Of a DNA stretch of 64,000 nt, positions 8,205 to 44,798 are shown piece by piece. Position 1 is the stretch's first letter, and each line of letters begins with the position of its first letter. The stretch comes from a virus: the IMG/VR virus record IMGVR_UViG_3300029002_000085. One strand, given 5' to 3'. Both the position numbers and the translations under genes were made by a program. The notes under the pieces are model-generated. The model ran no database searches. It was given only the letters and a program-made list of their open reading frames with translations, and was not told where the DNA came from.

Positions 8205-8207
8205 ATT

Positions 8208-24036: not shown

Positions 24037-26052
24037 TCAATTCAAACCTAATTTTACAACGAACTGTACTAGCCCACTCAAAACAGCACTGGCCTCTTTT
24101 GTTTCACTATCTTTATTATAGTCCATCAGGTTATTCATGAAGGCAACATATTCCGTATCAGATTCTACTTTTGATGCAGAAAAAAGAATACTATTTTTCA
24201 CATAATCAGATGTTGCAGCAATACGCTTATCTACATCCGGAAACTCTTTCATTACACGAATCTCCTTGTTTGTACTAGAACGGAGTTCCCGGATAAAAGG
24301 GAAATAAGCATCTGTACATTCAATTACACATGAATCAGATTCATGGGACAAAATAGAAGAACGTATATCTTCTGTTGAAGTAGTATCCATAAATACGACA
24401 TCAACAACATGCCATTTATTCCCACATCTAAACGCTTGTATAAGGACAAATTTCCCATTAACATTCGGCATCACATATAGAATCTTCTTAGTGTATTTAC
24501 ATTCGGTATCTGGATTGAAGAAATTAATAGTGCCATTACAAGCATACAAGTTCCTTTTTCGCCGGTTACTAAACTCTATATACTGCTCACTACACAAATC
24601 CACAACAACATAGCGAAACGTATCGGATAAATGACCATGTTCCTCATATGTCTGCAAGGTAGTTTTATTCTTGACCTTGGTTTTAAGAATAGCACCGTTA
24701 GCATCTTTCTGTACGCTCATGTAGTCCTCAATAGATACCGAACATGATTCGTCAATGTATATCTCTATACCGGGAACTGTACAATCAAAGATAGCATTGA
24801 TAAACTCACCGGTCATCGCTACACTCGGATTCTTGTTGCCTACCTTATCTTCAATCTCGAACCCTTCTTTTTGCAATGTATCTATGAATAAGTCCATCCA
24901 GGAACGCTTCTCATCGTCAATGCTGTTTGCCGCTTTCGTTGAAGCATCACCATGTACATATAACCTATCAGAATATTGGATAGATTTCAGATACTTTGCA
25001 ACAAGTTTGGAAGCTTTCTTTACAGTATTGTTTGGGCTTTCAGCGCACATTTCATGAAATTGCCAAACCTTGGTACCAGTTGTGAAATCGACCTGCCAAT
25101 ATGATACGCTGATATACGGAAGCACGTTGTTATCGACAGAAATATGAATAGGTAAGTCCGGAACATACTTATGTTCACCGGAATGTTTGCCACGATTGAA
25201 GGAACCGAAGAACTCACTACCGGTACGAATGACACCCCATTCTCCCAATGCGTACACATTGTAATAATCCGGATCGTGGACTCTATCATACTCAAAGTCG
25301 GCAACACATTGCTCATCATAGAAACCATACGTACCGTCAGGACTACCGACCACCCAAAAATTATTCAAATAGGTAGATTGGATAATAACTGTATTAGGTG
25401 CCTGTTCCTCGATTTGCTTAGTACGAAGATTAAGTATTTGCCTGGGTGCATTCTTCTTTACGGATTTGACCTTGGTAAGTTCTTTCGGCAACTCTTTGCC
25501 GGCAATGGTAACCGTCATCGGTACATCATGCCATTTGTCTTTATCAATAAACTCTTTCTTTATCCAATGGCTTTCACTAATCGGGTTGAAGGTACAAATA
25601 ATCTGCTGTCCTTTCTTACCACGCAAACGCTTACGTAGCTGCTTGAAATCCGGATGCTCGAACTCTGACCATTCCTCTAACTGAACACGCTTGTAGTTAG
25701 AGATACCTTTTATTTTCTCAGGATCATCAAGACCGGAGAAATCTATCTTCGCACCATTTACTAGACATTTAATAGTATTCTGTTGGAATTTGAACAAATG
25801 GGATATGCCAAGACCGGCCGCAGCGACCTTATAATCTTCATAAATGGTTTTGAGAATAGAAGCTCCTACCTTACGCATGACAAGAGTGTTTTCACCGTCC
25901 TGTAATGTCTGTATCAGTATGGTTTGTGCCACACTATACGATTTACCGGAAGATGAACCTCCATAGAGAATGATAAAACGGATAGTCTCATCATTCAAGT
26001 ACTTCAATAAATAAAATCCGTTAGGATTTAGCTTCTTATAATTTATAACCAT
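24037..26052 (-). CDS. terL: Terminase large subunit
   Basis: Walker A motif ILYGGSSSGKS near the N-terminus, 671 aa, follows the small terminase. Confidence 0.85.
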   Translation of the reverse strand: MVINYKKLNPNGFYLLKYLNDETIRFIILYGGSSSGKSYSVAQTILIQTLQDGENTLVMRKVGASILKTIYEDYKVAAAGLGISHLFKFQQNTIKCLVNGAKIDFSGLDDPEKIKGISNYKRVQLEEWSEFEHPDFKQLRKRLRGKKGQQIICTFNPISESHWIKKEFIDKDKWHDVPMTVTIAGKELPKELTKVKSVKKNAPRQILNLRTKQIEEQAPNTVIIQSTYLNNFWVVGSPDGTYGFYDEQCVADFEYDRVHDPDYYNVYALGEWGVIRTGSEFFGSFNRGKHSGEHKYVPDLPIHISVDNNVLPYISVSYWQVDFTTGTKVWQFHEMCAESPNNTVKKASKLVAKYLKSIQYSDRLYVHGDASTKAANSIDDEKRSWMDLFIDTLQKEGFEIEDKVGNKNPSVAMTGEFINAIFDCTVPGIEIYIDESCSVSIEDYMSVQKDANGAILKTKVKNKTTLQTYEEHGHLSDTFRYVVVDLCSEQYIEFSNRRKRNLYACNGTINFFNPDTECKYTKKILYVMPNVNGKFVLIQAFRCGNKWHVVDVVFMDTTSTEDIRSSILSHESDSCVIECTDAYFPFIRELRSSTNKEIRVMKEFPDVDKRIAATSDYVKNSILFSASKVESDTEYVAFMNNLMDYNKDSETKEASAVLSGLVQFVVKLGLN

Positions 26053-26113: not shown

Positions 26114-26659
26114 CTATTCTTCCGAATCCTCATTATCTTCAAATCCGATACGAAGTTCACCGACTTTATTTCCGTCTCCACCTTTGATGTTGACATTCTT
26201 ATCGGCTTCCCATCCATTCCAGGCACCAAGAATCCGGGCGGCTTCTGTCTTGCCGTTGAACTCATAATTAACCACTCCTCTATTATTCTGAATCTTCTTC
26301 AACGCATTACGAGCACGCTTTGGAAGTTGGGACGGACTTCTCATCTTTGTTTTCCCGGTAACAGGGTCTACATAATGTAAATCATCGGGATCAGCGAGTA
26401 CAATATCCATTAATACCTTCTCGACCGTTTTCCTCTCTACTTCAGTCTCTTTCGCCCTCTGTTGCTTAATCTCACTTATCCTTGCACTAACCTTGCTATT
26501 TGCTAATAGTCTACTCGCAGCGCTCCAAATTGTCTCTGGCTTCATGTTGGAAGTATTATAAGACATTCGATATGCTTCACTTGCATTACCTTCTGTATCA
26601 ACGTAATATTTACAGAATTTCTCTTGCTTAAATGTTAATGGTTCCTCTCGCTTTCCCAT
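26114..26659 (-). CDS. terS: Terminase small subunit (Terminase_2/P27-like)
   Basis: N-terminal LTFKQEKFCKYYVDTEGNASEAYRMSY pattern and a 181-aa basic protein directly upstream of terL. Confidence 0.7.
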   Translation of the reverse strand: MGKREEPLTFKQEKFCKYYVDTEGNASEAYRMSYNTSNMKPETIWSAASRLLANSKVSARISEIKQQRAKETEVERKTVEKVLMDIVLADPDDLHYVDPVTGKTKMRSPSQLPKRARNALKKIQNNRGVVNYEFNGKTEAARILGAWNGWEADKNVNIKGGDGNKVGELRIGFEDNEDSEE

Positions 26660-26660
26660 A

Positions 26661-27227
26661 TCAATTATTGTTTATTCCTATGAGAAAAAGAAGCTGCTCT
26701 CTATCTCTTAAAAGCTCATAGGTGGCAAGTAATGTACTGCCGGTTGTTAATATGTCATCATACACTATTATCTTCTTTTCCTTTATCGGACGAAGAAGAA
26801 AGAATTCCGGATTCAATCTATCTTTAGTTAGGCACTGAATTGCATTCTCATAGAATGGTATTTTCACCGCCCCCGCAATTTTCGTACAGATAGAGGTTGC
26901 AAAATGAAAGCCCTCGTTGTGTCTCCGTCGCGGTGTGGTGACTATACACCATCCTTCATATCCCCCTACAATGAAGCGGTGGAGAAACTCACACGCTCTC
27001 TCTGCAAAGAATGATGCAAGTTCCTCCGACTGTTTAATTTCTGAAAAGCTGGTGCCAGTCTTGGAACGGGTGAACTGGGAGATGTAATAGATATCACCCT
27101 TTTTATGAAGTGATACCTTTTCTTTCAGATCACATAACCGTTCCTGATGAGACCAGCTCTTACATTTCACCGCTTCCGGCTTATCCCAGTCATCAATACG
27201 ACATATCTTTCCTTTTCCTTTCATCAA
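26661..27227 (-). CDS. ComF/GntX-family phosphoribosyltransferase-domain protein
   Basis: PRTase signature KKIIVYDDILTTGSTLLATYELL with upstream VTTPRRRHNEGFHFATSI, matching the ComFC C-terminal domain. The N-terminal part is Cys/His-containing. It overlaps the epimerase gene, so the two are co-transcribed. Confidence 0.65.
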   Translation of the reverse strand: MMKGKGKICRIDDWDKPEAVKCKSWSHQERLCDLKEKVSLHKKGDIYYISQFTRSKTGTSFSEIKQSEELASFFAERACEFLHRFIVGGYEGWCIVTTPRRRHNEGFHFATSICTKIAGAVKIPFYENAIQCLTKDRLNPEFFLLRPIKEKKIIVYDDILTTGSTLLATYELLRDREQLLFLIGINNN

Positions 27228-27984
27228 AGATCTTCTTTACTCCGTCCTCGACAGATGTGTAAGACAAAGGTACTAAATAGATATCCCGGTTCACCGACTG
27301 CTCCAAATTGTCAAAATCCCGTTTTTTATTAATCAACTCTATTTCAATCGGTTTGTAGTATTTTACTAAAGATGCAAAATACATAGTAGTCACAGGTTGG
27401 ACGTTACAAATATTGATGAGCTGACGTTTACAGCCCACCGCATAAATAAGCCCTTCGACAACATCATCTATGTAAGTGAAGCACCGGATATTCTGACCAC
27501 AGTTGTATAATGACACGTTTTCCTTTTCCATCAGGAACCAGAGAAGAGTTCTTTTTCGCGGATTAGGTCCATATACATTATGCAGCCGGCACCCGGTCGC
27601 AGCCTTACAATAGATAGATGCATACTGTTCATCGAAATACTTGCTTATTCCATACATAGAAGTGGTATTCTCCGGATTAGCCGTTGACGAACTGGCATAT
27701 ATTAACTTCACATGATTTTGATTGCAAGCATCAGCTACTCGCATGAAAGTATCAATGTTATCCCTCCTGATTTGTTCCAGGTTTCCATTGAACACACTGG
27801 TTTGCGCTGCCAAATGGAACACACAATCAATCCCCCCATTCTTCAGGAGCTCGCATACTTTTGTGGCTTCAGTACCAGACTTTCGATCAAGTCCTATGAC
27901 TTCAACACCTCTTTTTGTCAATTCGCAGCAAAGGGCTTTGCCTATAAACCCCTCACTACCGGTTACAATCATTTTTCTCATCAT
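27193..27984 (-). CDS. NAD-dependent epimerase/dehydratase (extended SDR) family protein
   Basis: Rossmann motif MIVTGSEGFIGKALCCEL, a YxxxK-like motif and a UDP-sugar 4-epimerase-like layout. The ORF track starts at 28014; the start at Met-11/15 is more plausible. Confidence 0.75.
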   Translation of the reverse strand: MMRKMIVTGSEGFIGKALCCELTKRGVEVIGLDRKSGTEATKVCELLKNGGIDCVFHLAAQTSVFNGNLEQIRRDNIDTFMRVADACNQNHVKLIYASSSTANPENTTSMYGISKYFDEQYASIYCKAATGCRLHNVYGPNPRKRTLLWFLMEKENVSLYNCGQNIRCFTYIDDVVEGLIYAVGCKRQLINICNVQPVTTMYFASLVKYYKPIEIELINKKRDFDNLEQSVNRDIYLVPLSYTSVEDGVKKIFDERKRKDMSY

Positions 27985-28052
27985 CACAAAAAATAAAAAA
28001 GGTTGTGCCAACATTTTGACACAACCTCAAGTTCAACAATAATTAAGAGAAA

Positions 28053-28502
28053 TCACTTCTTATTGGTTTTCTTTTTAAAATAGCCCCACAATGGTGGAAT
28101 GAAAGGAAATAGGGAAATAAAAAATGCCATAATAGATAAAATATAGCTTTGATTTGATTTATCTAAATACTTATCTATATCATTGTTTTTATTATATAAT
28201 TCATTTGCTATTGAGATTATTTCATTTTCAATCTTAACATAATCATCTCCTGCCGATTTTTTGACTTTTTCAAATAGTTCTTTTTGAGTTGAATTCAATT
28301 TATCGAATGGATACTTTAGTCTAGCCTCCTCTTTTAAAAAATATAATTTTGACAAAAAAATGGTATCGACTTCTGTTCCAAGATAATAATCGCATATAAT
28401 ATCATTTATAATATACTCAATATCTACATTAGCTGTATAAGTATCCATATTTCGATCGCCTCTTACCATAACTCTTTCTTTCCTATCGTACAAACTCTTC
28501 AA
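28053..28502 (-). CDS. Hypothetical protein with C-terminal TM anchor; first gene of the TM-epimerase-PRTase operon
   Basis: 149 aa with C-terminal SIMAFFISLFPFIPPLWGYF followed by KKKTNKK. It is preceded by an inverted repeat at 28535-28560. Confidence 0.45.
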   Translation of the reverse strand: MKSLYDRKERVMVRGDRNMDTYTANVDIEYIINDIICDYYLGTEVDTIFLSKLYFLKEEARLKYPFDKLNSTQKELFEKVKKSAGDDYVKIENEIISIANELYNKNNDIDKYLDKSNQSYILSIMAFFISLFPFIPPLWGYFKKKTNKK

Positions 28503-28837
28503 ATCATCATAACTACAATTTTTATCTATTGCACTAACAAAATCATATTTTAGATTTTCATCGGTTAGACTTAACCGATTGAGGAATAAACTTTTAGCGA
28601 ATTATTTGAAAAGTGGCGGTAACGAGTTAGCAACCGTGCGAATTTCAGCGTTTTGCGTTGCTATGCTGTCAAATAACTCTTTCATTTGCAAATATAGCAT
28701 CTTTTTTCGAAAGTACGAACTATCGGCGGCAGTTTTATAAAATCGACTGGCGAAAAAACAAATAGAATTTTCCAAAATAGCTTGGGATAAGCCATTAACG
28801 AAATACTTTCTTTTAAGAGCACAGTGGTTTACCCAAT

Positions 28838-28860
28838 AAAATTATATACCTTTGTAACAA
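28838..28860 (+). promoter_or_regulatory. Bacteroides-type promoter (TAnnTTTG -7 box) for the C-protein/methyltransferase operon
   Basis: tatatacctttgtaacaag lies about 20 nt upstream of the ATG at 28879. Confidence 0.4.
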
Positions 28861-28878
28861 GTTAAAGAAGATGTCGCA

Positions 28879-29079
28879 ATGAATCGGATAAAAGAAGCAT
28901 TGATTGAGGCGGGGATTAGTCAAACTGAATTGGCTAAACGACTTGGCAAAGGTTTTAATATGGTCAATCTATACGCCACGAACAAAGTGCAACCTCCTAT
29001 ACCCGTACTATACAGGATAGCGGAAATACTGAATGTGGATGTGCGTACACTTCTTGTACCTAACGAAATAAAAAAATAG
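28879..29079 (+). CDS. XRE-family HTH protein (controller C-protein-like)
   Basis: ISQTELAKRLGKGFNMVNLYATNKVQP HTH; 66 aa; 4 nt upstream of the methyltransferase ATG. Confidence 0.7.
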   Translation: MNRIKEALIEAGISQTELAKRLGKGFNMVNLYATNKVQPPIPVLYRIAEILNVDVRTLLVPNEIKK

Positions 29080-29083
29080 ACAT

Positions 29084-30217
29084 ATGGCAAATACTAATCT
29101 AAAAGAAGCTAAGGCGGCTAAGAATGATGAGTTCTATACGCAATTTCATGACATAGAGATTGAAATGAATGCCTATCTTGAATATGACCCGGACGTGTTT
29201 AGGGGAAAGACTGTATTGCTTCCTTGTGATGACCCCGAATGGAGTAACTTTACCCGATACTTTGCTGCCAAGTTCGATGAGTTAGGCTTGAAAAAACTGA
29301 TTTCTACGAGTTATGCTCCGGATAGCAAAAAATACAAAACACCTTATCAGCCCTCTTTGTTTGAGCAAGAAGCGCCTCAATTCGACCCGTCCAAGGCACA
29401 GGTAAAAGGTAAGATATTCATCTTGGAACGAGACAAAAGCGGGGACGGGCGTATCAATATTGATGACCTCGAATGGAAGTATATGGATGGTGACGGGGAT
29501 TTCCGAAGCAAAGAAGTTACCGAACTTCGTAATGAAGCGGATTTTATTATCACCAATCCGCCGTTCTCCCTCTTTCGTGAGTTCTTGGCTTGGATTGTGG
29601 AAGCTGGGAAGAAGTTTGCTGTAATAGGTAACATGAACGCAATCACTTATAAAGAGGTCTTTCCCTTGATAAAAGATAACAAAGTTTGGTTAGGTGCTAC
29701 AGGAAATGGAAATGATATGGTTTTTGGCGTTCCTGACGGAGCTAAAGTAGATGAGAAAGACAAGGCTAAAGCTGCAAGATTGGGATATGTCGGTAATTAT
29801 ACCCGATTAGGTAATTCATGTTGGTTTACCAGCATAGAGCATGGCCGTCGTCATGAACCATTGCCACTGATGAGCATGGCAGACAACCTCCGCTTTTCCA
29901 AACATAAGGAACTGAAAGGCAAAGCTGCCTATGACCGCTACGATAATTATGATGCCATTGAAGTACCTTTTACGGATGCCATTCCTTCAGATTATGATGG
30001 AGTGATGGGAGTTCCTATATCCTTTTTGATTAAGTATTGTCCGGAGCAATTTGAAATCTTAGGGATAACCGATAGGGGCAATCAATGGGGATTAAAAACC
30101 AAGGAATACACCATTTCCGACACACCTAACTTTGCGGATTTGAACCGTAGGGGAACTATTGGGAGCAATGGCTCTTTGGTTTCAACATATGCCCGATTAC
30201 TCATACGCAAATTATGA
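29084..30217 (+). CDS. N6-adenine DNA methyltransferase, EcoRI-methylase family
   Basis: N-terminal NDEFYTQ and FTRYFAAKFDELGLKKLISTSY closely recall the M.EcoRI N-terminus. Catalytic DFIITNPPFS motif is present. Confidence 0.8.
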   Translation: MANTNLKEAKAAKNDEFYTQFHDIEIEMNAYLEYDPDVFRGKTVLLPCDDPEWSNFTRYFAAKFDELGLKKLISTSYAPDSKKYKTPYQPSLFEQEAPQFDPSKAQVKGKIFILERDKSGDGRINIDDLEWKYMDGDGDFRSKEVTELRNEADFIITNPPFSLFREFLAWIVEAGKKFAVIGNMNAITYKEVFPLIKDNKVWLGATGNGNDMVFGVPDGAKVDEKDKAKAARLGYVGNYTRLGNSCWFTSIEHGRRHEPLPLMSMADNLRFSKHKELKGKAAYDRYDNYDAIEVPFTDAIPSDYDGVMGVPISFLIKYCPEQFEILGITDRGNQWGLKTKEYTISDTPNFADLNRRGTIGSNGSLVSTYARLLIRKL

Positions 30218-30457
30218 TCTGATATGTTTAATAAGAACTCTTGCATAAACTTGGGTATAATATTTCCCGTCAACCATATAATATGTTTCATTCTGAGGAA
30301 CTTCGGAATGAAGCAAGACTGCCCCGTCATTGAGTTTCGTCACTTTCGTCTCTTTGCCATGACGGTCTACTTGAATCTGTTCTGGATAGACCTTGGAAGC
30401 ACTACCATACCAAGTTTTAGTTATCCCTAAGATTTCAAAGTACTTCATCACTCGCAA
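30212..30457 (-). pseudogene. Degenerate inverted copy of the methyltransferase C-terminal segment (with a second copy in another frame at 30458-30640)
   Basis: The 81-aa ORF reads MKYFEILGIT...YTQVYARVLIKHIRS. The methyltransferase C-terminus reads EQFEILGITDRG...STYARLLIRKL. The minus-strand frame of 30458-30640 reads EILGQTQGDSGKELG...KPYARVLIRKIASDEVL. Confidence 0.4.
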
Positions 30458-30645
30458 TTTTTCTAATTAGTACTCGTGCATATGGTTTTTGAGGTATTCC
30501 GTTCTCTAAATAGTAAAGCTGACCATCTCGTAAACTGGGATTTAGTTTCTTTAATTCACGGGGGTATGGACGCAAACCAAGTTCTTTTCCTGAATCACCT
30601 TGTGTCTGACCTAAGATTTCAACTTAAAAACAAAAACAATAAATT

Positions 30646-31497
30646 ATGACACAACATAATACCATCAAGCTTTTTGAAGCTAAAAAAGTCCGTACTATTT
30701 GGGACGACAAAGATGAAAAATGGTACTTTTCCATAGTGGATGTGGTGGCTGTCCTAACCGATAGCCCTAATCCTCGTAAGTATTGGAGTGTCTTGAAAAC
30801 ACGTTTAAAAAAAGAAGGGAGTGAGTTGACTACAAATTGTAGTCAACTGAAAATGAAATCGGCTGATGGAAAGATGTATTTAACCGATGTGGCAGATACT
30901 CAGCAGCTTCTCCGTTTGATTCAGTCTATTCCATCGCCCAAAGCAGAACCGTTCAAGCAATGGATGGCACAAGTGGCGACTGAACGTCTTAACCAAATGC
31001 AAGACCCCGAACTCTCTATCAATCAAGCACTGGTGGACTATAAGCGGTTGGGGTATTCGGATAATTGGATTAATCAGCGTCTCAAATCCATAGAGATTCG
31101 TAAAGACCTCACGGATGAATGGAAGCGGCACGGATTGCAAGAGGGAGTGCAGTTTGCTACGCTGACCGATATTATTTATCAGACTTGGAGTGACATGACC
31201 GCCAAGGAATATAAGCAGTTCAAAGGTCTGAAAAAAGAGAACTTACGTGACAATATGACCAATAAGGAATTGGTGCTAAATATGTTGGCGGAACTTTCCA
31301 CCAAAGAAATATCTGAAAGTAAAAATCCGGAAACATTTCGGGAACACATGGATGTGGCGGAAGCCGGTGGTGAGATTGCCCGCAATGCCCGTATGGAGTT
31401 GGAAGCCAAGACGGGTAAGGCAGTCATCAGTCCGCTGAACGCCAAGACAGGCATTGCGCTCAATTCATCTCCGGAAGAAGAAGACACAAAAGAATAA
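30646..31497 (+). CDS. Bro-N domain protein (DinD-like / phage antirepressor-like)
   Basis: Bro-N N-terminus IKLFEAKKVRTIWDDKDEKWYFSIVDVVAVLTDSPNPRKYWSVLK with a long helical C-terminal domain. Confidence 0.7.
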   Translation: MTQHNTIKLFEAKKVRTIWDDKDEKWYFSIVDVVAVLTDSPNPRKYWSVLKTRLKKEGSELTTNCSQLKMKSADGKMYLTDVADTQQLLRLIQSIPSPKAEPFKQWMAQVATERLNQMQDPELSINQALVDYKRLGYSDNWINQRLKSIEIRKDLTDEWKRHGLQEGVQFATLTDIIYQTWSDMTAKEYKQFKGLKKENLRDNMTNKELVLNMLAELSTKEISESKNPETFREHMDVAEAGGEIARNARMELEAKTGKAVISPLNAKTGIALNSSPEEEDTKE

Positions 31498-31519
31498 TCC
31501 TAAAAAGTGAATCAATATC

Positions 31520-32692
31520 ATGAAGACAACATTGCATACAGAATGGACTGTCGAAGACATCTGTAAAGGATTTACCTACAACGAATTGGAAGGTAAAGGT
31601 CTGTTTGGATTGGACGGGCGGCTCACTATCCAACCCGAGTATCAACGCCATTACATCTACAACGATGGGAAACGTGATGTAGCGGTGATAGAATCCCTGC
31701 TGAAAGGTTATCCCATCGGACTAATCTATTTCAACCGGACTGTGGACGGACGATTTGAAGTACTTGACGGGCAGCAACGCATCACTTCTATCGGTCGGTT
31801 CGTTACAGGAAAATTCGCCATCAAGGATGAAGCGGATAACGTACAGTATTTCTCGGGATTGCCCGAAGAGCAGCAACAAAAGATTATGCAATCCTCTCTG
31901 CTGGTATATGAATGCGAGGGTGAAGAAAAGGAAATAAAGGAGTGGTTCAAGACCATCAATATTGTAGGCATTCCGCTCAAGGAGCAGGAATTGCTCAATG
32001 CCATCTATTCGGGCGAGTTCGTAAATGCAGCCAAGCGGGTGTTCAGTAATTCCCAAAATGCGGAAATACAGAAATGGAGTCATTATATCAAGGGAGATGT
32101 GAAACGGCAGGATTATCTGGCGGAAGCCCTCCGGTGGATTTGCGACAGTAAGGGGATGAGCATTGATGCCTATATGAGCATACACCGTCACGAGCCTTCC
32201 ACGGGAGAATTGGAAAGTTATTTCCGTTCTGTGATTGACTGGGTATCGGCTACCTTTACTATGGTAGAGCGTGACATGTGCGGCTTGGAATGGGGACGGC
32301 TGTATGAAACGTACCATGCCACCCCTTATAGCACCGTCCATGTCGCGGAACGGGTAAAAGCCTTGCAAGCGGATGAAAGTGTGCGGTGTCCCCGAAATAT
32401 TTACGAATATGTACTGGGTGGAGAAGAGGATAAGAAACTGCTTGACATCCGTATCTTTGAAGAATCAACCAAGCGGGCTGCTTACAAGCGTCAGACCGAA
32501 GCGGCTGAGAAACAAGGAATTTCCAATTGTCCGCTCTGTGCGTTGGGGAATAATGCCAACAAGACCCGCATTTACAAACTTTCGGAAATGGATGCCGACC
32601 ATGTGACTGCATGGAGCAAGGGAGGGGCAACCAGCATGGAAAATTGCGAGATGCTTTGTAAAACCCATAATCGTTCAAAGGGAAATCGGTGA
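31520..32692 (+). CDS. DUF262 (ParB/Srx-like) + HNH endonuclease fusion; GmrSD-like type IV restriction enzyme
   Basis: DUF262 signatures [12 protein letters not shown] and [14 protein letters not shown]-terminal HNH CPLC...[30 protein letters not shown]. Confidence 0.8.
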
Positions 32693-32738
32693 AAGTGTGT
32701 TATTTTGAGAGAGTTAAATCAATTAATTCTCTCAAAAT

Positions 32739-33662
32739 ATGAACAATAAAAAAACATTTCACGAAGTTTCCGAGATTTGGTGTGATGCAAAGCGTCCGAT
32801 AGTGAAGCATTCCACCCTATGTGCTTATCAGCTTACGTTACAAACACACCTATTGCCACGATTTGGCGCTGCGGAAAATATAACAGAGAAGGATGTCCAG
32901 CAGTTTGTGATAGACAAATGTACTTCCGGATTAGCAAGAAAAACAGTCCGGGATATAGTGGCAGTGCTCAAATCTGTTATCAAATACGGGAATAAGCACG
33001 GGATTTTCCATTTTGAAGAATGGGAAATCGAATATCCTACCCAAACAGAAAACAAACTGCCGCCCACATTGTCATTAAATCATCAGCGTATATTGATGCG
33101 TCACTTGCTGGAACAGCCCACTCCACAAAATATAGGTGTACTGTTGGCTCTCTGTACCGGAATGAGAATCGGTGAGGTTTGTGCTTTGAAATGGGAAGAT
33201 GTGGATTTTGCACAAAAGACAGTCATCGTGAAGCATACTGTAGGCAGAATATATAACTGTGAGTTGAAATCTACAGAAAGGGTTCACTCTTCCCCAAAAA
33301 CCAAGAATTCCTATCGTGAGATTCCTATATCCAAACAGCTTCTCCAAGCGTTGAAAATGGTAAGGAAACAATCTCAATCCCCATACGTGGTAGGCACTTC
33401 CACACAATCTAAAGAGCCCCGTTCTTATCGTGATTATTTTGGCAGGTTGCTAAAACGATTGGATATTCCCCACTTGGTCTTTCATGGACTTAGGCATACA
33501 TTTGCGACCCGATGTATTGAAAGCCAGTGTGATTATAAAACTGTCAGTGTCATACTCGGTCACTCAAATGTGGCAACGACACTTAATCTGTACGTTCATC
33601 CTAATCTCAATCAAAAGAAACGGTGTATTGACCGTATGAGTAATTTCTTGGGAATAACATGA
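32739..33662 (+). CDS. Tyrosine recombinase / integrase (307 aa)
   Basis: R-H-R-Y region HGLRHTFATRC...LGHSNVATTLNLYVHP and the Arg-I box LALCTGMRIGEVCALKWEDVD. Confidence 0.85.
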   Translation: MNNKKTFHEVSEIWCDAKRPIVKHSTLCAYQLTLQTHLLPRFGAAENITEKDVQQFVIDKCTSGLARKTVRDIVAVLKSVIKYGNKHGIFHFEEWEIEYPTQTENKLPPTLSLNHQRILMRHLLEQPTPQNIGVLLALCTGMRIGEVCALKWEDVDFAQKTVIVKHTVGRIYNCELKSTERVHSSPKTKNSYREIPISKQLLQALKMVRKQSQSPYVVGTSTQSKEPRSYRDYFGRLLKRLDIPHLVFHGLRHTFATRCIESQCDYKTVSVILGHSNVATTLNLYVHPNLNQKKRCIDRMSNFLGIT

Positions 33663-33684
33663 GTTAGTCTTGGACTCTATATAT

Positions 33685-33713
33685 ACATGGGGGACAAAAA
33701 ATGTCCTCCATGT
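33685..33713. terminator. Bidirectional hairpin terminator between the convergent integrase and relaxase genes
   Basis: acatggggga-caaaaaatg-tcctccatgt inverted repeat. Confidence 0.45.
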
Positions 33714-33732
33714 ATGTGATGCGCATGATTGA

Positions 33733-35088
33733 CTATAGCTTGAAGCCTTTATTCTTTTTCTGAATAGGCTTCAAGCCGACATTCTGTTGTAATCGTTCAA
33801 ATTGTTTCTTGAACCATTCCCCGATATGCAGTCCGTCAATGGCAAGTATCAGCTTTCCATTGTTTGTACCAACTTTGGCAGTAACATCATTCGTCTTGAA
33901 CTTACGCCTATGCTCATCGGAATAGAGTTCGCCGTTGTACGGCAATGGCTTGCCTGTCATTAAATGGGCGGTCTGTTCATGGGTAAAACCGACAGCAAGG
34001 CACAATTTCTCAATACGGAGCATAGCACGAAACCAAGGAAACCATTCTGTGGCTTTTATCAACAAGGCGTTAAGCCTTGATACTTCCGTTTGATGTTTTG
34101 TTACCGTCTCGTTCTTTTCCAGCAAGTGCCGTTGCTGCATTTCCAGCACTTGGCGGCTGTGGTCTGCCCGTATGGTCTGTATCTCGGCTTGCAGGGCTCC
34201 GATGGTCTCCTCGTGTGTGGCTACCTTCCTATGCAGGGCGGTGTTCTCCCTCTCCAGTGTCTTGACCTTGTTGCTCCCGAAAAGAGAACCGACACTCTCG
34301 GCGATGTTGGCGGCTGCGGTCGTGGCTGCCCCTTTCAGCCGTTCGGTCTGTATCTCTTTTTTCGCCCGTTCAAGCTCTTCCCGTGCCGTTTCTTTCCGTT
34401 CCTGCAATTCCACCACTTCCGTTTTCAGTTCCTCTGTTTGTCGCTTTATGTCACGGTAATATTGCTGCGTGGAAACGTGCCTCGCTTCCGAACCGTCCAC
34501 GCCCCGTTGTAAACCGTATTTTTTCATCGCAACAGCGTAGCTGTCTTGATAGGCTTTCAGTTTCAAGCGGCTCATGATGTCATCGGCGCACAGCCTCACG
34601 GTGTCGGTCGGCTTCTTGCGGTAGCGTTTCTTCGCCTGCTCCTCCCTTTTCTTCCGCTTGCGTTCCCCCTTGACTATCGGCACAAGTGTGACGTGCATGT
34701 GCGGTGTTTTCTCGTCCAAGTGCAGGTGAGCCGCCACGATGTTCTCCTTCCCGAACGTGTCGGCAAAATATTTGAGGTTGTCGGCGCACCACTCGTCCAG
34801 CCGTCCCTCCCGTTCGATGCGTTCCATGTCTTCGGGTGTTGCCGACACGTTGATGCGGATTGCCCGCACTTGGTTACTTCCGATTTTGCGTGTCAGTCCC
34901 GCTTCTTCCAGCCTCCTTTGGATAGCCGCCGAACGGTCTTTCACTCCTTCGGGATATTCGATGAGTTTTCGGTTTAGATGCGTGCGTGTGGGGTCAGCGT
35001 TCTTGGGTATGATGAAACGCTCTATGTGGGCGGTCGTCCCGCTGTCGGAACCGTGCGCCTTTTCCATGTGTAAAACTACGAAACCCAT
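33733..35088 (-). CDS. MobV-family (Mob_Pre) relaxase / mobilisation protein
   Basis: MGFVVLHMEKAHG...AHLHLDEKTPHMHVTLVPIV is the Mob_Pre His-triad region, with a long coiled-coil C-terminus. The probable start is the internal Met at 35088; the ORF track starts at 35151. Confidence 0.8.
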   Translation of the reverse strand: MGFVVLHMEKAHGSDSGTTAHIERFIIPKNADPTRTHLNRKLIEYPEGVKDRSAAIQRRLEEAGLTRKIGSNQVRAIRINVSATPEDMERIEREGRLDEWCADNLKYFADTFGKENIVAAHLHLDEKTPHMHVTLVPIVKGERKRKKREEQAKKRYRKKPTDTVRLCADDIMSRLKLKAYQDSYAVAMKKYGLQRGVDGSEARHVSTQQYYRDIKRQTEELKTEVVELQERKETAREELERAKKEIQTERLKGAATTAAANIAESVGSLFGSNKVKTLERENTALHRKVATHEETIGALQAEIQTIRADHSRQVLEMQQRHLLEKNETVTKHQTEVSRLNALLIKATEWFPWFRAMLRIEKLCLAVGFTHEQTAHLMTGKPLPYNGELYSDEHRRKFKTNDVTAKVGTNNGKLILAIDGLHIGEWFKKQFERLQQNVGLKPIQKKNKGFKL

Positions 35089-35151
35089 ATATTCTTCCTT
35101 TCTTTTTTGGCTTGTGCAACAATGATTTTTTTGTATCTTCAGGGGCGGCAA

Positions 35152-35300
35152 ATGCCGTCCCCGATGGGGTGTGCAGAGGGGCTTGCCCCTTGCCTTATTG
35201 GGGAATTTTCAGCGATACGTAGTATTGCGGCTCGGAAAATTCCCTAATAAGCTACGGTATTTTCTCCGTAAATACCCTGCGGCGTACCGTCCGTCTGCCT
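35152..35300. promoter_or_regulatory. Putative oriT / regulatory region upstream of the relaxase gene
   Basis: GC-rich non-coding stretch with inverted repeats (ggggaattttc...gaaaattccc; gcaaatgccgtcccc). The ORFs listed here look spurious. Confidence 0.35.
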
Positions 35301-35608
35301 TTCTGCGGTGGCTATCCCTGCCGTCTGCTTACCCATATAACCCCACCCTTATTTTTTCCCTTTCGGTCGGTGGGTGGCGGGGCGGTCGGATACAAGGTTT
35401 TCCCGATAAATACGCTCGCAGCGAAGCGAGAGGAAGATTTATCGGGAAACGGCGCAGCCGCCTGACCTTTTAGCCGACATAAAGCCCCGTGCTTGCTTTG
35501 CCTTTGTAAACGGAAATGATTGCTCCGCTTTCCTCTGAAAAGAGGAATAGAACCTGCAATATATATCACCATAGTGATATGTTTGCATGTTGGTATGTTG
35601 ATATATCA

Positions 35609-36001
35609 TCATGCTTTCCAACGGCTGTTGGGCTTGCCGTCCGAAACAACCGACACGAATACCTTCGTTTTCTCTTTTCGCCCGTGTATAATCCTTTCCA
35701 ACAACACTTTGCGGACTTTCGCCGCCCCGAACGATTCAACACGGAAAGCGAGGGCGGCTATCGTTTCGAGGTTGTAAACCTCCGCGCTGTATTTGTCCGA
35801 TATGCGGATAATGCGCTTTATGTCATATACGCTCAAAACTCCGCTTTTGCAGAGTGCCTTTATCCCTGCCCGAACCGTCGGGGCGATAACCCCGAACAGT
35901 TCGCAGATTTCCCGCTCGGTCATGGCGGTTGCACCTATATCGCTCGGCAGGGAGATATTGCCCTGCCCGTCCATCGTGATAATGTTCCTTTCTTCTTTCA
36001 T
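35609..36001 (-). CDS. HTH DNA-binding protein (putative excisionase/regulator of the mobilisable cassette)
   Basis: HTH-like MTEREICELFGVIAPTVRAGIKAL; starts at the internal Met 17 nt after the integrase stop; 130 aa. Confidence 0.45.
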   Translation of the reverse strand: MKEERNIITMDGQGNISLPSDIGATAMTEREICELFGVIAPTVRAGIKALCKSGVLSVYDIKRIIRISDKYSAEVYNLETIAALAFRVESFGAAKVRKVLLERIIHGRKEKTKVFVSVVSDGKPNSRWKA

Positions 36002-36018
36002 CGGGATTCTGTTTTTAA

Positions 36019-37251
36019 TTAGATGGTTCGGCAGATATTCTTCTCCATATCCTCCAACTTGTGCGACAAGGTTTCCATGTCTTGGCTTATCTTCTGGGCG
36101 GTGATTTTGGCGTAAATTTGGGTGGTTTTTATGTTCGTGTGTCCCAAAAGGCGGCTCACCGTTTCGATGGGTACGCCGTGCGACAGAAGTACGGTCGTGG
36201 CGTTCGTGTGGCGTGCCACATGGTAGGTCAAACGTACCTTGAAGCCGCATTGTCTGCCTATATCTTTGAGTATCTTGTTGCAGCTTCCGTTACTCGGAAC
36301 GGGGAAAACATGACCGTCCCTTGCCAGCCCCTTGTACTTTTCGATGATACGCTTGGGAACGTCCAAAAGGCGGATGTTTGATTCGGTGTTGGTCTTCTTT
36401 CTTCGGGTGATTATCCACAGGTTGCCGTCGAAGAATGTTTGCAGGCGGTCGACGGTGAGGTTCTTCACGTCCGAATACGCCAAACCCGTGAAAACAGAAA
36501 AGACGAACAAGTCCCGTACAAGCTCGTGGGTGGCGTTCTTCATCGGTGCGTCCATGAGCGTCTGTATCTCCGTTTGGGTGAGGTAGCCCCTATCCACGCT
36601 TTCGGGAGAGTTGATATATCCGGCAAAGGGATTGAACGGCAAACGCCCGTTGTTCCTTGCAATGGAAACGATGTGTTTCAACACAATCATGTAGCCCCAC
36701 ACGGTATTGGTGCGGCATTTCTTCTCCGTGCGCAGAAAATACTCGAAATCGTTGATGAACGTGAGGTTGAGTTCCTTTAACGGAATATCCTCACGCCTGT
36801 AGGTATGGGGCAAAAACTCCCGAATATGGTTGCAGACCGTCCGATAACGGGTAAATGTACCCTGCGCCCTGCTGTGCCCGACTTTCTTCTCAAACTCGGC
36901 GTTGTGCTGCTCGAACAGTTTCAGCAAAGTTTCCTGCTTGACGCCGATACCGAGATAGGCGTCTTTGAGTTTGGCGGCGGTAACATAACCGTCCGTCTGC
37001 ATTAACTCTTGATAGCGGCGGTTTACCTCCACACGGATTTTATCTACCGCAAGGTTGATTTTCTGTGCTTCGACGCTCTTGCCCGAAGCACGGCTGTTCT
37101 TCACGTCCCACAACCGTGGGGGAACGTCCATCTTGCAACTGAACTGTTTAATCTCGCCGTCCACCGTGATACGGCACATTAAAGGCAGGTTGCCGTTCGG
37201 CTTCTCGCTGCCTTTCTTCACGTAAAATAATACCTTGAATGTACTACGCAT
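36019..37251 (-). CDS. Tyrosine integrase of the Bacteroides IntDOT/IntN1/Tn4555 type (410 aa)
   Basis: N-terminal arm-binding-type domain (MRSTFKVLFYVKKGSEKPNGNLPLMCRITVDGE) and catalytic HVARHTNATTVLLSHGVPIETVSRLLGHTNIKTTQIYAKI. Confidence 0.8.
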   Translation of the reverse strand: MRSTFKVLFYVKKGSEKPNGNLPLMCRITVDGEIKQFSCKMDVPPRLWDVKNSRASGKSVEAQKINLAVDKIRVEVNRRYQELMQTDGYVTAAKLKDAYLGIGVKQETLLKLFEQHNAEFEKKVGHSRAQGTFTRYRTVCNHIREFLPHTYRREDIPLKELNLTFINDFEYFLRTEKKCRTNTVWGYMIVLKHIVSIARNNGRLPFNPFAGYINSPESVDRGYLTQTEIQTLMDAPMKNATHELVRDLFVFSVFTGLAYSDVKNLTVDRLQTFFDGNLWIITRRKKTNTESNIRLLDVPKRIIEKYKGLARDGHVFPVPSNGSCNKILKDIGRQCGFKVRLTYHVARHTNATTVLLSHGVPIETVSRLLGHTNIKTTQIYAKITAQKISQDMETLSHKLEDMEKNICRTI

Positions 37252-37825
37252 AACTCACTCCTTTTTTTGATTACAAAATTAGTTATTAGTGAGTTACCGA
37301 CAGCTATGTAAATCTACGCAAAACGCAGAAACAGAACTGTTTAGCAAGAAATCTGCACCCGTTACGGGAGTAACGAGGTGGTAACTGGACTTCTGCACCG
37401 TTTGGCTTCGAGGTGGTATTTCGTTGGCTCTGTCCCATAGAAAAACAAAGCGTAACGAACGCTCTATCAGCTAATTCGCTACGCTTTGCCCAAATTTACT
37501 TTTTCGCTATGTGTTTATTTTATACTTTTAGGAATTAACACTTCTGTTTTTTCAAAAATCATAATTATTGTTGCTTTTACAAGAACAGCTATAGCCAATA
37601 ACAAAAATATAAATGCAACAAAAGAAAATCTAAGCATTATATCACGCTGTACACTATTAGTCATACTAGGAGGAAGTAGTTTCTTATCTAACCATTCTTT
37701 AAATCTCATAGCTAATATATTTTTTTGCAAAAATACACTTTTTAATTAAATACAAGATTATTCAGCATAACTCCATTTTAATTTCGCATATTTCAAAAAT
37801 TGTTCATTTTTACAAAAACACATTG

Positions 37826-38616: not shown

Positions 38617-39240
38617 TTAATTCCACTTGGTTACTGTTGAAAAGTCACAAGGGGAATTGAATCTATTAGTTAATATGTATGCCGCCTTGTACTGGTTCCT
38701 CAAAGTATCACCGTGGAATACGATACCGGATATTCCCCTGACAGCCAGATTAAATAAAAGGAAAGGTACTGTTTTGTCTGACAACTCACCGCATACAATC
38801 AAATGGTCGTTAGGCTTGTAATCTAAGAAACTAATACTATTCCGGTGATTGTACCAATTTGAAATGAGCATTCCGCCTGTTCCGGCTGTTGGCTCATAGG
38901 TTACGCCCGTATCAGAACCTAATAATTTAGAAACCAAAGTTGAAATACATTTAGGAGTGAAATCCTGCTTGTTGTTCTTTCGGTCAGCATGTTCATCTTC
39001 AAAGTATTCATGGAACCAATCATAACTGACATCACATTTGAAGTAGTCCAAAAAGTCTTTGAATACCTTTGTCCGTTCTTTTTCCTCTCCAAACAAAAGA
39101 CTCATTATCCGTTCCGGTGCCTGATAACTGTCTGTTATTCCCAACATTCCATTTATGTCAGATAATATATTTCTCATGGGATAATTTAATTTCGTCATTG
39201 GTTGATTGTGCATAGATAGTAGTTGTCTCAATGCTCTCAT
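38617..39240 (-). CDS. Truncated N6-adenine methyltransferase (HsdM-like) fragment lacking the NPPF catalytic motif
   Basis: KQDFTPKCISTLVSKLL (the FYTP-like segment) and motif I YEPTAGTGGMLI, plus GELSDKTVPFLLFNLAVRGISG. The protein ends before any NPPF. The 5' end overlaps the recombinase gene, so the start is uncertain. Confidence 0.55.
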   Translation of the reverse strand: MRALRQLLSMHNQPMTKLNYPMRNILSDINGMLGITDSYQAPERIMSLLFGEEKERTKVFKDFLDYFKCDVSYDWFHEYFEDEHADRKNNKQDFTPKCISTLVSKLLGSDTGVTYEPTAGTGGMLISNWYNHRNSISFLDYKPNDHLIVCGELSDKTVPFLLFNLAVRGISGIVFHGDTLRNQYKAAYILTNRFNSPCDFSTVTKWN

Positions 39241-40177
39241 GACCTAGCATCTTCTGTACCTGTTCTATTGGCATTCCTCGTTTTAGGGCTGTAGTTGCCG
39301 CTGTTCTCCTAAGTCTATGTGGATGTACATTGGATATACCCGCCTTTTTCCCTAGATTCCTTAGCATGATTTCAACTGCTCCCTTGGATATCCGGGATAG
39401 TTTATTCATATCTTTTATCTGCTGGCACATTCCCTCATAATCAGATAAAAATAGGGCTTCTAAATCATCTGTTCTTGAATCAACATATTCCTGAAGAGCT
39501 ATTTTACAGCGAGCAGACAAGTAAACAGTTCGATACTTACGCCCTTTTCCAAGTACATCAATCTGCCCATTTTGCCAATCTACATCACCGAGATTCACAT
39601 TTACCATTTCGGATACGCGACAGCCGGTGGAAAACAAGAATTCGATTATAGCCTTATTCCTTTTTGTCCTAGCCAAAGACCTTAATCTCTCCATATCATC
39701 CTCACTTAATGGCTTCTTCAATTTCTTCACTTGTCGCACCCCCTTGATTCTAAGCATTGGATTCCTATCAAGTACACCTTCTTCTGTGCACCAAGTAAAG
39801 AAGCTGCTCAAAGTTCTTCGAATGTTGTTAAGAGTATTATCACTACATTTATTAATCTTCTTATAGGCTAAATAGACACGGACATCATCGGTAACGATTT
39901 CCTTGATATGTTTTCCTACATGTAAGATAAACGCTCTTAAAATGACACGATAATAGTCTAATGAACTTTGGCATAATCCTTCCACGGCTTTGGCTATGAA
40001 GAATTTACTGATAATTTGAGAATCGGAATTATCATATACTACAACGGACGTTTCCTTTGCCATTATATCATAATTCCTTAGGCAGAAAGATACCGAATCA
40101 ATTACTGTCGAAATTTCTTCATTGGGTATCTTACCGTACAAAGTATCACGTATTTTAGTTAAAACATATTCTTTCAT
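39158..40177 (-). CDS. Tyrosine recombinase (XerC/D-like, 339 aa)
   Basis: HPHRLRRTAATTALKRGMPIEQVQKMLGHESIETTTIYAQ and ARTKRNKAIIEFLFSTGCRVSE. Confidence 0.8.
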   Translation of the reverse strand: MKEYVLTKIRDTLYGKIPNEEISTVIDSVSFCLRNYDIMAKETSVVVYDNSDSQIISKFFIAKAVEGLCQSSLDYYRVILRAFILHVGKHIKEIVTDDVRVYLAYKKINKCSDNTLNNIRRTLSSFFTWCTEEGVLDRNPMLRIKGVRQVKKLKKPLSEDDMERLRSLARTKRNKAIIEFLFSTGCRVSEMVNVNLGDVDWQNGQIDVLGKGRKYRTVYLSARCKIALQEYVDSRTDDLEALFLSDYEGMCQQIKDMNKLSRISKGAVEIMLRNLGKKAGISNVHPHRLRRTAATTALKRGMPIEQVQKMLGHESIETTTIYAQSTNDEIKLSHEKYII

Positions 40178-41869: not shown

Positions 41870-42577
41870 CTATTGCATTTCACGTTTAAATCTTTCCTCT
41901 AAATCAAAAATGGTTTCTCCACTATTACGCCGATAGGGCCTATCGGTATTTAACTGAAGTTCTTTCAGCTTTTTCCAATACCAGGGAAGGTACAAGTACA
42001 TATTCTTCAACTCCTTCAAGTTCTTATTTCCACAACACCAGCAACTCACACGATCAAGTAGCTCATATAGCCTTACTCCATCCTCATGCCAAACAAAGCC
42101 TTTTGTGTAACAGTACTGGAGTGCATCTGCTTCAGTAATGCCCCAATCACGAAGTGGTAAAACCCGATTTGGTCGTTTTTCCTTTTCAAAGCGATGGGTC
42201 TCATCGGCAGCAATACCGACATAATCAATTCCGTCTTTTGTGTGAGCTTTCAATGCACGAAGTTTTTCACTCGTTCCCCACCGGCATGTTCCCCCACACC
42301 AACTATATCCTTTTTTATGGATAATATTGGTCCCTCTTTTCTTAACCGGCCTTTCAAACATTGTCCAAAGAAAAGGTTGCTCCGGATGCAGTTCTGTATA
42401 TTTAATGCCAAGTTTTTTAAGAATTGGAAGAACAGCATCACGAGTGTTATAGATTGCCTGAAATTCCATACCTGTATCATAGAAAACGACTTCATCCAAC
42501 TGATATCCTTTATCTATTAGCATGAAAAGCATTGCCAAGGAATCCTTTCCAAAGCTGACTGAAGCATAATATTTCAT
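41870..42577 (-). CDS. PAPS-reductase-like / PP-loop ATP pyrophosphatase family protein (IbrA/DndC-like)
   Basis: PP-loop SFGKDS near the N-terminus and a C-terminal Cys cluster SCWCCGNK. Confidence 0.7.
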   Translation of the reverse strand: MKYYASVSFGKDSLAMLFMLIDKGYQLDEVVFYDTGMEFQAIYNTRDAVLPILKKLGIKYTELHPEQPFLWTMFERPVKKRGTNIIHKKGYSWCGGTCRWGTSEKLRALKAHTKDGIDYVGIAADETHRFEKEKRPNRVLPLRDWGITEADALQYCYTKGFVWHEDGVRLYELLDRVSCWCCGNKNLKELKNMYLYLPWYWKKLKELQLNTDRPYRRNSGETIFDLEERFKREMQ

Positions 42578-44089: not shown

Positions 44090-44131
44090 ATGAAAAATGA
44101 TGAAACCACAGCTACTTAGCCGTGGTTTCAT
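44090..44131 (-). terminator. Rho-independent terminator overlapping the stop of the 191-aa gene
   Basis: atgaaaccacagctacttagccgtggtttcat hairpin, followed on the minus strand by a U-run. Confidence 0.5.
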
Positions 44132-44790: not shown

Positions 44791-44798
44791 ACAGACTA

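Follow-up and report, generated by a model that had tools for sequence, protein, structure and literature searches.

The competence protein ComFC binds single-stranded DNA (ssDNA) and phosphoribosyl pyrophosphate (PRPP); it interacts with DprA and depends in vivo on its PRPP site (PMC9005727). Phosphoribosyltransferase (PRTase) domains encoded by phages share an arginine with ComFC, and their role has been called enigmatic (PMC5512222). Some glycosyltransferase (GT) genes of phages come with an NAD-dependent epimerase as the presumed source of the donor; for ParB, a role in guiding modification enzymes during packaging has been suggested (PMC8256090). The TET-associated glycosyltransferases (TAGTs) form the family of the T2/T6 beta-glucosyl-HMC-alpha-glucosyltransferase, and solitary TAGTs are found in many phages (PMC13216743). 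Here, we analyze a Bacteroides prophage locus at which relatives of these proteins meet the packaging genes. It lies in the virus record IMGVR_UViG_3300029002_000085 of IMG/VR—a stretch of 64,000 nucleotides, referred to as the window in the following—and encodes an epimerase-type short-chain dehydrogenase/reductase (SDR) and a ComFC-like PRTase-fold protein directly upstream of terS.

The original prediction had read three genes at this place—a transmembrane (TM)-anchored protein, the SDR, and the PRTase—as one operon of overlapping genes inserted upstream of terS. We find that the TM open reading frame (ORF), the SDR, and the PRTase are not one unit and form no three-gene operon. Instead, the locus shows three layers: a cargo gene of a variable slot that is broken by a mobile element, a terminator-like hairpin at the border of this slot, and a core of SDR and PRTase. 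The latter two open the packaging operon as its first and second cistrons and belong to the core of a widespread temperate Bacteroidales siphophage lineage. New is the conserved, packaging-linked arrangement of known folds; the family itself is uncharacterized.

Gene order and conservation of the SDR–PRTase pair

The genes around the packaging operon are the following:

24037-26052, minus strand: terL, PBSX/Terminase_3 type (Pfam Terminase_3, 3e-40)
26114-26659, minus strand: terS, which follows SDR and PRTase as third cistron (Pfam Terminase_2, 1.3e-25; phrog_51)
26661-27227, minus strand: PRTase-like ORF as called, with the ATG at 27224 as the likely start (187 aa)
26661-27224, minus strand: the resulting ComFC-like type I PRTase-fold protein of 187 aa without zinc finger (from PRPP loop and AlphaFold2 (AF2) fold)
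27193-28014, minus strand: SDR ORF as called (273 aa)
27193-27990, minus strand: compact extended SDR of ~265 aa, NAD-dependent, nucleoside diphosphate (NDP)-sugar 4-epimerase type (from PF01370, phrog_540, and the AF2 model)
27999-28028, minus strand: terminator-like hairpin (stem 13 bp, loop 4 nt) with a T run behind it (from folding)
28053-28502, minus strand: TM ORF of 149 aa with a TTG start and a hydrophobic C-terminus (from the ORF list)

Hence, three co-oriented ORFs indeed precede terS on the minus strand (26661-28502). Their proposed overlap holds for the SDR stop and the PRTase start (32 nt in the window sequence), but not for the TM ORF, which ends at least 38 nt away from the SDR. 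Between the PRTase stop and the terS start, there is a gap of 1 nt.

The order of the pair is constant within the lineage. A one-genome-per-species scan yielded 23 loci from Bacteroides, Phocaeicola, Muribaculaceae, and other Bacteroidales (group A), and in all 23 the SDR stands immediately upstream of the PRTase—at PRTase identities of 46-98%—with terS and/or terL next wherever the contig continues. Loci at ~55% PRTase identity show the order SDR-PRTase-terS-terL-portal-capsid. A set of 76 prophage loci represents the close relatives (PRTase mostly at least 96% identical, at least 2.5 kb of upstream sequence each), and all 76 carry both genes. As the pair is invariant across these 23 and 76 relatives, it is core and not the inserted moron that it was taken for; the inserted DNA at this place is the neighboring 8.97-kb element described below. 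The view that the pair is not a standard phage module stands, as its linkage is conserved and corresponds to no described phage module. Our literature search found no characterized function for the SDR–PRTase pair.

The PRTase has ~200 homologues in a 90%-identity collection, of which the named ones come from Bacteroides and Muribaculaceae, and terS of the window, which is found on many long Bacteroides contigs, has 1172 indexed blocks in the assembly collection. The prophage is very common in human-gut Bacteroides, and its presence—pair included—in B. xylanisolvens XB1A and B. acidifaciens DSM 15896 makes experiments feasible. Among 50,697 GenBank phage records, there is no cultured relative, with terL being at most 43% identical; nucleotide and protein searches of these records returned no match to the PRTase or the region, and merely distant matches to the SDR (at most 34% identity, some in polysaccharide-type contexts). 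At this distance, the two genes are accessory: neither of them precedes terS in a faecal phage whose terL is 43% identical.

In a single locus (L006, 3334-4041), a phosphoribosylanthranilate isomerase gene (PRAI; TrpF-like, PF00697) and a gene for a 560-aa C5 methylase lie a few kb upstream of SDR–PRTase. An "Amadori" pathway of PRTase, PRAI, and SDR was considered as a general model and rejected, as PRAI occurs in this locus only.

The variable slot upstream of the SDR

The TM ORF differs from the pair in its distribution and in its state. It has no family in Pfam, PHROG, PADLOC, or NCBIfam, and comparison with the sister prophage L008 identifies it as part of a split gene:

28053-28545, minus strand: 3' remnant of a cargo gene for a 228-aa protein with two TM segments, retaining the C-terminal TM segment only
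28546-37515: 8.97-kb integrative mobilizable element, missing in L008, which is identical in other respects
37515-37709, minus strand: 5' remnant of the same gene, 64 aa with TM1

In L008, the 228-aa gene is intact (locus positions 7921-8607) and encodes hydrophobic segments at approximately residues 27-52 and 199-220, as judged by hydropathy. L008 matches the window from 45629 to 37516 and then runs straight on at 28558-16114, with 100% identity on both sides of 28546-37515 (99.98% for the second segment). Since L008 joins 37516 directly to 28558, the window holds ~8.97 kb of extra DNA. The 3' part of the gene in the window matches the L008 gene only downstream of the insertion point, and the 5' remnant stops at a codon formed by the insertion junction; in L224, a 71-aa gene is called at the place of this remnant. 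A further locus, L009, is 100% identical to window positions 16114-36659.

The gene immediately upstream of the SDR is exchanged among the 76 close relatives, for which at least eight alternative cargos were found. Two of them are encoded on the opposite strand: AbiH (16 loci) and a membrane protein of 337 aa in which a putative AbiC domain is recognized (PF16872, 8e-13; 24 loci). Others are an 87-aa ORF, a 319-aa Cys-rich protein, a 90-aa lipoprotein-like ORF, a 318-aa protein with weak similarity to radical-SAM enzymes, and—in some relatives—a deoxyribosyltransferase-like gene. The 228-aa TM gene occupies the slot in only three of the 76. This hypervariable slot corresponds to positions 27999-28060 of the window and to the equivalent position in L008-L096. 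The TM gene is hence an unrelated cargo of the slot, split and truncated here by the mobile element, and a check of whether the trio is conserved as a unit found SDR and PRTase linked and the TM gene not. The idea of a hotspot was thus sound for the slot just upstream of the SDR, which is the true hotspot, but not for SDR and PRTase themselves.

The assumed three-gene operon is further contradicted by the terminator-like hairpin (−25 kcal/mol, z −4.2), which ends ~10 nt ahead of the SDR start. Every cargo variant shows the same layout: TGTTGAAC, a hairpin of 9-13 bp, a T run, and then ~10 nt to the SDR ATG. In the sister prophages, the hairpin is flanked by the conserved TGTTGAAC and TTTATTTTTTTGTGATGATG; the sequence of the stem differs between cargo types while its pairing is kept by compensating changes. 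For this comparison, the variants were folded one by one, and a covariation count from a MAFFT alignment was dropped because the alignment was out of structural register. More distant relatives have no hairpin, and the SDR comes after the stop codon of the preceding gene. From its sequence and position, the hairpin probably acts as a terminator that closes the slot and insulates the packaging operon.

For annotation, this anatomy means that a defence-cargo slot, a mobilizable element inside the prophage that carries a GmrSD-type gene, and a conserved phage core are to be kept apart.

The ComFC-like PRTase-fold protein

The assignment as a ComF-like PRTase had been made from the letters of the DNA and holds on an alignment of 45 homologues and on the AF2 model, with a Pfam score that stays below the cut-off. 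The protein carries a canonical PRPP loop, KKIIVYDDILTTGSTL, and the general PRPP-loop pattern (four hydrophobic residues, then D-[DE]-x-x-[ST]-[ST]-G-x-T) is matched by IIVYDDILTTGSTL. Within the loop motif DDIxTTGxT, D156, D157, T160, T161, G162, and T164 are invariant in the 45 homologues. The same applies to T96, P98, R100, R101, and G105 of an Arg-rich loop that follows strand 2 (TTPRRRHxxGFH), and to D32, H40, K64, and R136. Family models capture the loop region alone: matches to Pribosyltran, comF, and ShosT are confined to residues ~137-177. PF00156 scores 22.1 bits against a cut-off of 26.3 (E 1e-4; only residues 148-176 align), TIGR00201 (comF) is far below its cut-off (19.8 vs 233.55 bits, E 6e-4), and no specific assignment of the protein came from PHROGs, PADLOC, or NCBIfam.

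The AF2 model (pLDDT 87) shows the PRT core fold with a five-stranded parallel sheet. Its best match in the PDB is ComFC of H. pylori (7p0h, TMq 0.62 over 182 columns), followed by PyrR, HGPRT, and APRT; 155 matches reach E<=1e-3, and the 50 listed are all PRTase-fold proteins (ComFC, PyrR, HGPRT, APRT, OPRT). Among the viral models of BFVD, the sole close match is an uncharacterized protein of a gut siphovirus.

With ComFC/ComF (7p0h; TIGR00201), the protein shares the type I core with two N-terminal strands, the DDIxTTGxT loop, the Arg-rich loop, a basic character—the median pI of the PRTase domain is ~9—and, in some relatives, a DprA neighbor. Unlike ComFC, it lacks the 4-Cys zinc finger, is only ~12% identical in sequence, and stands in a phage packaging context next to SDR and terminase genes, with no ComFA or ComEC. 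The Cys/His N-terminus that had been proposed to be fused to the PRTase is not a conserved metal site: in the 45 homologues, the conserved N-terminal residues of this kind are C31 (at least 90%) and the invariant H40, with no CxxC pair, and a single conserved Cys does not make a zinc finger.

The PRTase domains of polyvalent proteins (Iyer et al. 2017, PMC5512222) are likewise encoded by mobile elements and bear the ComFC-like Arg. As described, these are solo or fused domains next to MuF/portal genes, mainly from Proteobacteria and Verrucomicrobia and fused to MuF, whereas the domain analyzed here is solo or fused to ParB_N, belongs to phages of Bacteroidales and Firmicutes, and is positioned before terS or within methylase islands.

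The epimerase-type SDR

That the middle ORF encodes an SDR was borne out by matches to PF01370 (Epimerase; 1.3e-27, 97.2 bits vs a cut-off of 20.9) and to phrog_540, "nucleotide-sugar epimerase" (3.5e-61). The ATG at 28014 sits inside the stem of the hairpin; hence, the start is most likely the ATG at 27990 or 27987 (MMRKMIVTG), and the N-terminal consensus of the homologues reads MKMIVTG. Both the NAD motif TGxxGxxG and the Ser/Thr-Tyr-Lys triad are intact, and 38 homologues share TGSEGFIG (T6, G7, G10, G13), D31, S96-98, Y109, and K113 as invariants. The AF2 model (pLDDT 87.5) is closest to TunA, Pal, MoeE5, and UDP-GlcNAc/UDP-Glc 4-epimerases (TMq 0.75-0.80). It has a two-domain fold with a C-terminal NDP-sugar-binding domain, and ~305-320 alignment columns to TunA, MoeE5, and the 4-epimerases.

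4,6-Dehydratases carry the signature TDE, an Asp-Glu pair after the catalytic Thr. The SDR lacks this pair by sequence—it reads ASSSTANPEN—and is therefore epimerase- or reductase-like. Judged from motifs and models, both SDR and PRTase look like functional ligand-binding enzymes.

The extended-SDR fold and the Ser-Tyr-Lys triad are shared with GalE, WbgU, MoeE5, and the NAD-dependent epimerases beside phage DNA GTs (PMC8256090), and this phage likewise has a gene of a DNA-GT family, a TAGT. Compared with these enzymes of 300-340 aa, the SDR is smaller (~265 aa), is not adjacent to the GT, always heads the packaging operon, and has no TET or C5-MTase cluster in the window.

ParB_N–PRTase fusions in other phages

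A profile search with the PRTase against 1.84 billion representatives of a 50%-identity collection gave 202 clusters at E<=1e-10. Most members are ~290-330 aa long with the PRTase domain at the C-terminus. A ParB_N domain is detectable by Pfam at the N-terminus of 27 of the 102 scanned cluster representatives, among which there is no SDR–PRTase fusion; other extra domains are single cases of IMS, ManC_GMP_beta-helix, V_ATPase_prox, and further PRTase models.

The genomic context of the fusions was assessed at 36 loci from metagenome-assembled genomes of Firmicutes and Bacteroidales and from IMG/VR contigs (group B). In 11 loci (B1), the ParB_N–PRTase is followed by a small DUF5681-like terS candidate, a T7-type terL, and portal-MuF. 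In 13 loci (B2), the fusion adjoins a ParB_N–N6/N4 DNA methylase. Three Pfam-annotated B2 loci (L152, L158, L174) give the order terS (Terminase_4; L152 and L158), fusion, SAM-synthetase-like gene or DprA, ParB_N–N6/N4 methylase, and C5 methylase, with terL further downstream of the C5 methylase in L152. Homologues of the SAM-synthetase-like gene occur in six fusion loci, and DprA is adjacent to the fusion in two and nearby in two more (L174, L150, L115, L125). A solo form of 167 aa (L121, L122) lies two genes away from a ParB_N–methyltransferase.

Hence, the PRTase domain is repeatedly placed among ParB_N-tethered DNA-modifying enzymes at terminase genes. The fusions resemble the ParB_N–DNA methyltransferase fusions of phages in bearing the same N-terminal ParB_N and in taking the same place—the terS-terL interval or before terS—often next to one another; unlike in those, the catalytic domain has a PRTase fold and is not a SAM methyltransferase. 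A PRPP-binding ComFC-like domain is thus found time and again beside packaging genes, in phage lineages that are not related to each other, and in many cases joined to ParB_N with DNA methylases around it. This makes the domain an uncharacterized candidate for a new DNA-modification or DNA-handling activity, which could also illuminate what the PRTase of ComFC does in natural transformation.

Other modification genes of the prophage

ParB_N also occurs in the window itself, as a separate protein next to a DNA-GT family gene:

44799-45551, minus strand: TAGT (PF20691, phrog_842), overlapping the ParB_N-like gene
45520-46176, minus strand: ParB_N-like protein of 218 aa (ParB_N, 3e-4)

The TAGT is assigned by PF20691 (1.1e-15, 58.5 bits vs a cut-off of 27.5) and phrog_842 (5.8e-52), and the ParB_N-like protein is 31% identical to the ParB_N of the PRTase fusions over this domain. 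With a third gene, u191, they make up a triad (ParB_N-TAGT-u191; 44112-46176) that is conserved across the lineage and, in the Phocaeicola phage L143, directly adjoins the SDR and terS. The 191-aa product of u191 contains the motif SAMQKAIRRAD and weakly resembles the C-terminal domain of MgsA/RarA; in light of this resemblance, an assignment as the P-loop DNA kinase of hypermodification clusters was rejected. The window also encodes DUF3560 and fragments of an N6 methylase. The ParB_N-like protein and the TAGT are candidate functional partners of SDR and PRTase.

Between the TAGT triad and the slot (41870-42577 and 38617-40177), there are a PAPS-reductase-like gene (phrog_424, 1.5e-36), an internal gene of 339 aa that is tyrosine recombinase-like, and a 176-aa fragment of an N6 methylase, which are candidates for further DNA-modification or shufflon-like genes.

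Proposed function of the pair

Of the roles that had been suggested—nucleotide or DNA modification, surface-glycan modification, and a PRTase-effector defence—the first fits the context best, and we infer that SDR and PRTase are best understood as acting in DNA modification or handling coupled to packaging. For this function, set within a locus of three unrelated layers, we see about an even chance. SDR and PRTase would be made together with the terminase, and their target would be phage DNA, or the immediate precursors of this DNA, while it is modified and packaged. The PRTase-fold protein would bind PRPP or a nucleotide and engage DNA as ComFC does, while in other phages the fused ParB_N domain would deliver it to the DNA. 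The GalE-like SDR would oxidize or epimerize a nucleotide-linked sugar, which might be the donor for the ParB_N-associated TAGT or a ribosyl unit on which the PRTase works. The outcome might be virion DNA that is protected from host restriction.

Several points weigh against this proposal. The phage is not known to carry a modified base. The analogy to ComFC gives little mechanism. The link to the ParB_N–methylase islands is guilt by association. Each member of the pair occurs without the other, so the two are no obligate enzyme pair: an abundant Phocaeicola phage (L143-L145; the collection has 365 indexed blocks for its SDR) carries the SDR immediately ahead of terS and no PRTase, and all ParB_N-fusion lineages have the PRTase without an SDR. 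The TAGT lies 16 kb from the SDR in the window, or ~7 kb when the mobile element is left out. The Pfam annotation of 16-37 and 37.5-62 kb contains no enzyme for making the hydroxymethyl-pyrimidine to which a TAGT could attach sugar, i.e., no TET/JBP with C5-MTase and no dCMP/dUMP hydroxymethylase, an absence that is not proven as many ORFs there are unannotated. Finally, the terminator role of the hairpin is inferred, and the promoter scan does not cover Bacteroides promoters.

A strong version of the proposal would have the PRTase—brought by ParB_N, mostly in cis and here in trans—phosphoribosylate or exchange a DNA base with PRPP at packaging, whereupon the SDR would epimerize or oxidize the pentose. 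We regard this chemistry as doubtful and quite speculative. If true, phages would have a class of DNA hypermodification that depends on PRPP and runs alongside the methylation of the terS-terL islands, and this would hint at the job of the enigmatic PRPP site in the competence protein ComFC.

The separate occurrence of the two genes also suits an account in which they are independent accessory genes with no more than a common place before terS: the SDR would feed the TAGT with an epimerized UDP-sugar, and the PRTase would be a non-catalytic ComFC-like binder of ssDNA and a nucleotide that helps in the handling or protection of DNA ends at packaging or recombination, working with DprA in some phages. 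Here, an epimerase accompanying a GT has its precedent (PMC8256090), the order TAGT-u191-DUF3560-SDR-terS is contiguous in L143, ComFC binds ssDNA and interacts with DprA (PMC9005727), and DprA is a neighbor in the four fusion loci named above. However, SDR and PRTase are adjacent in every group A locus that has both, and their overlap in the window and its close relatives gives them the appearance of translational coupling. The invariant PRPP loop argues for ligand chemistry and not for a scaffold alone, and the Pfam annotation of the prophage shows no acceptor-generating enzyme for the TAGT. Taken together, this account is possible but on the unlikely side.

A pathway of free nucleotides deserves attention because of the Muribaculaceae-type relatives (L097, L099, L100, L104, L109), where DUF4406 (PF14359, above cut-off; nucleoside 2-deoxyribosyltransferase-like or N-glycosidase-like) stands directly before the SDR in the order DUF4406-SDR-PRTase-terS. 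Starting from PRPP and a base, DUF4406, SDR, and PRTase might together salvage nucleotides or remodel them. This could yield an unusual nucleotide that is incorporated, or the pathway could counter nucleotide-based immunity of the host. Type I PRTases are normally nucleotide-making, and the deoxyribosyltransferase-like cargo in the slot of some close relatives would fit as well; the literature search found no characterized function for DUF4406. We consider this pathway rather unlikely: DUF4406 is not present in the window, the ParB_N fusions and the methylase/terminase islands point to DNA and not to pools, and the position in the packaging operon suggests a late expression that would come too late for pre-replication remodeling of pools.

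That the pair serves in defence or as a toxin, like ShosTA, retron-PRTase, or DprA-PRTase modules, is very improbable. The PRTase shares fold and PRPP loop with ShosT, matched by PADLOC at E 2e-5, DprA-like genes close to the ParB_N fusion at a few loci are reminiscent of the ShosT/ShosA pairing, and the adjacent slot carries Abi genes. The ShosT match, however, covers the generic PRPP loop only (residues 137-175), and the window holds no ShosA/DprA gene, reverse transcriptase, or helicase. Unlike a gene of a defence island, the pair is an invariant phage core, co-oriented with terS and contiguous with it, whereas the real defence cargo is exchanged between relatives and in many cases encoded on the other strand.

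A role in glycosylating virion proteins, or in altering a surface glycan of the host by lysogenic conversion, has hardly anything to recommend it beyond the usual place of the SDR family in polysaccharide pathways and distant phage homologues in O-antigen-like clusters (e.g., Aphanizomenon phage Yong-DA), as there is no linked membrane GT, flippase, or acetyltransferase, the only GT of the prophage belongs to the DNA-GT family PF20691, the genes lie inside the packaging operon and not near att or the integrase, and a PRTase has no role in such pathways. Of the two findings that the original prediction had named as speaking against it—clear orthology to ordinary capsule or LPS genes lacking conserved linkage, and no PRTase motif on alignment—neither applies.

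The mobilizable element and its palindrome

The 8.97-kb element is flanked by 7-bp direct repeats TAAAATA (28546-28552 and 37516-37522). Its genes encode, according to Pfam, an HTH protein, an EcoRI-like methylase, Bro-N, GmrSD_N with HNH, a tyrosine recombinase, a Mob_Pre relaxase, and an integrase with an Arm-DNA-bind_5 domain. The identical element is found at no fewer than four unrelated chromosomal sites of Bacteroides with the same ends: it always starts with TAAAATA-AACACATAGCG and always ends with CAATCGGTTAAGTCTAACCGATGAAAATC-TAAAATA.

These features place it close to the NBU-type integrative mobilizable elements of Bacteroides, with which it shares a short direct-repeat core and the use of multiple chromosomal sites. 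We also take the combination of a tyrosine integrase bearing an arm-binding domain with a single Mob relaxase to be a feature of the NBU type that recurs here. Unlike the NBU type, which presumably targets a tRNA 3' end, the element has just TAAAATA as target core. It also differs in its cargo of a GmrSD-like type IV restriction gene, an EcoRI-like methylase, and Bro-N.

The element also accounts for a palindrome that the original prediction had noticed just upstream of the three genes:

28560-28579: palindrome ATCGGTTAgacTTAACCGAT, 7 nt inside the TAAAATA repeat of the element

The palindrome is present as reported, but it belongs to the element and not to the gene set. Its distance to the end of the element is constant in L224-L228, whatever the insertion site, and because of this constant position across sites, it is assigned to the mobile element as a subterminal inverted repeat, unrelated to the SDR and PRTase genes. 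By arithmetic, a palindrome with 8-bp arms is not unusual by chance in 64 kb, with about one expected per fixed spacer. Its half-site, the octamer ATCGGTTA, occurs eight times in the window compared with 1.9 expected copies—at 17917, 28560, 28572, 30066, 30755, 30881, 45006, and 50467—and five of these copies lie within the element. The octamer may be the binding site of an element-encoded protein.

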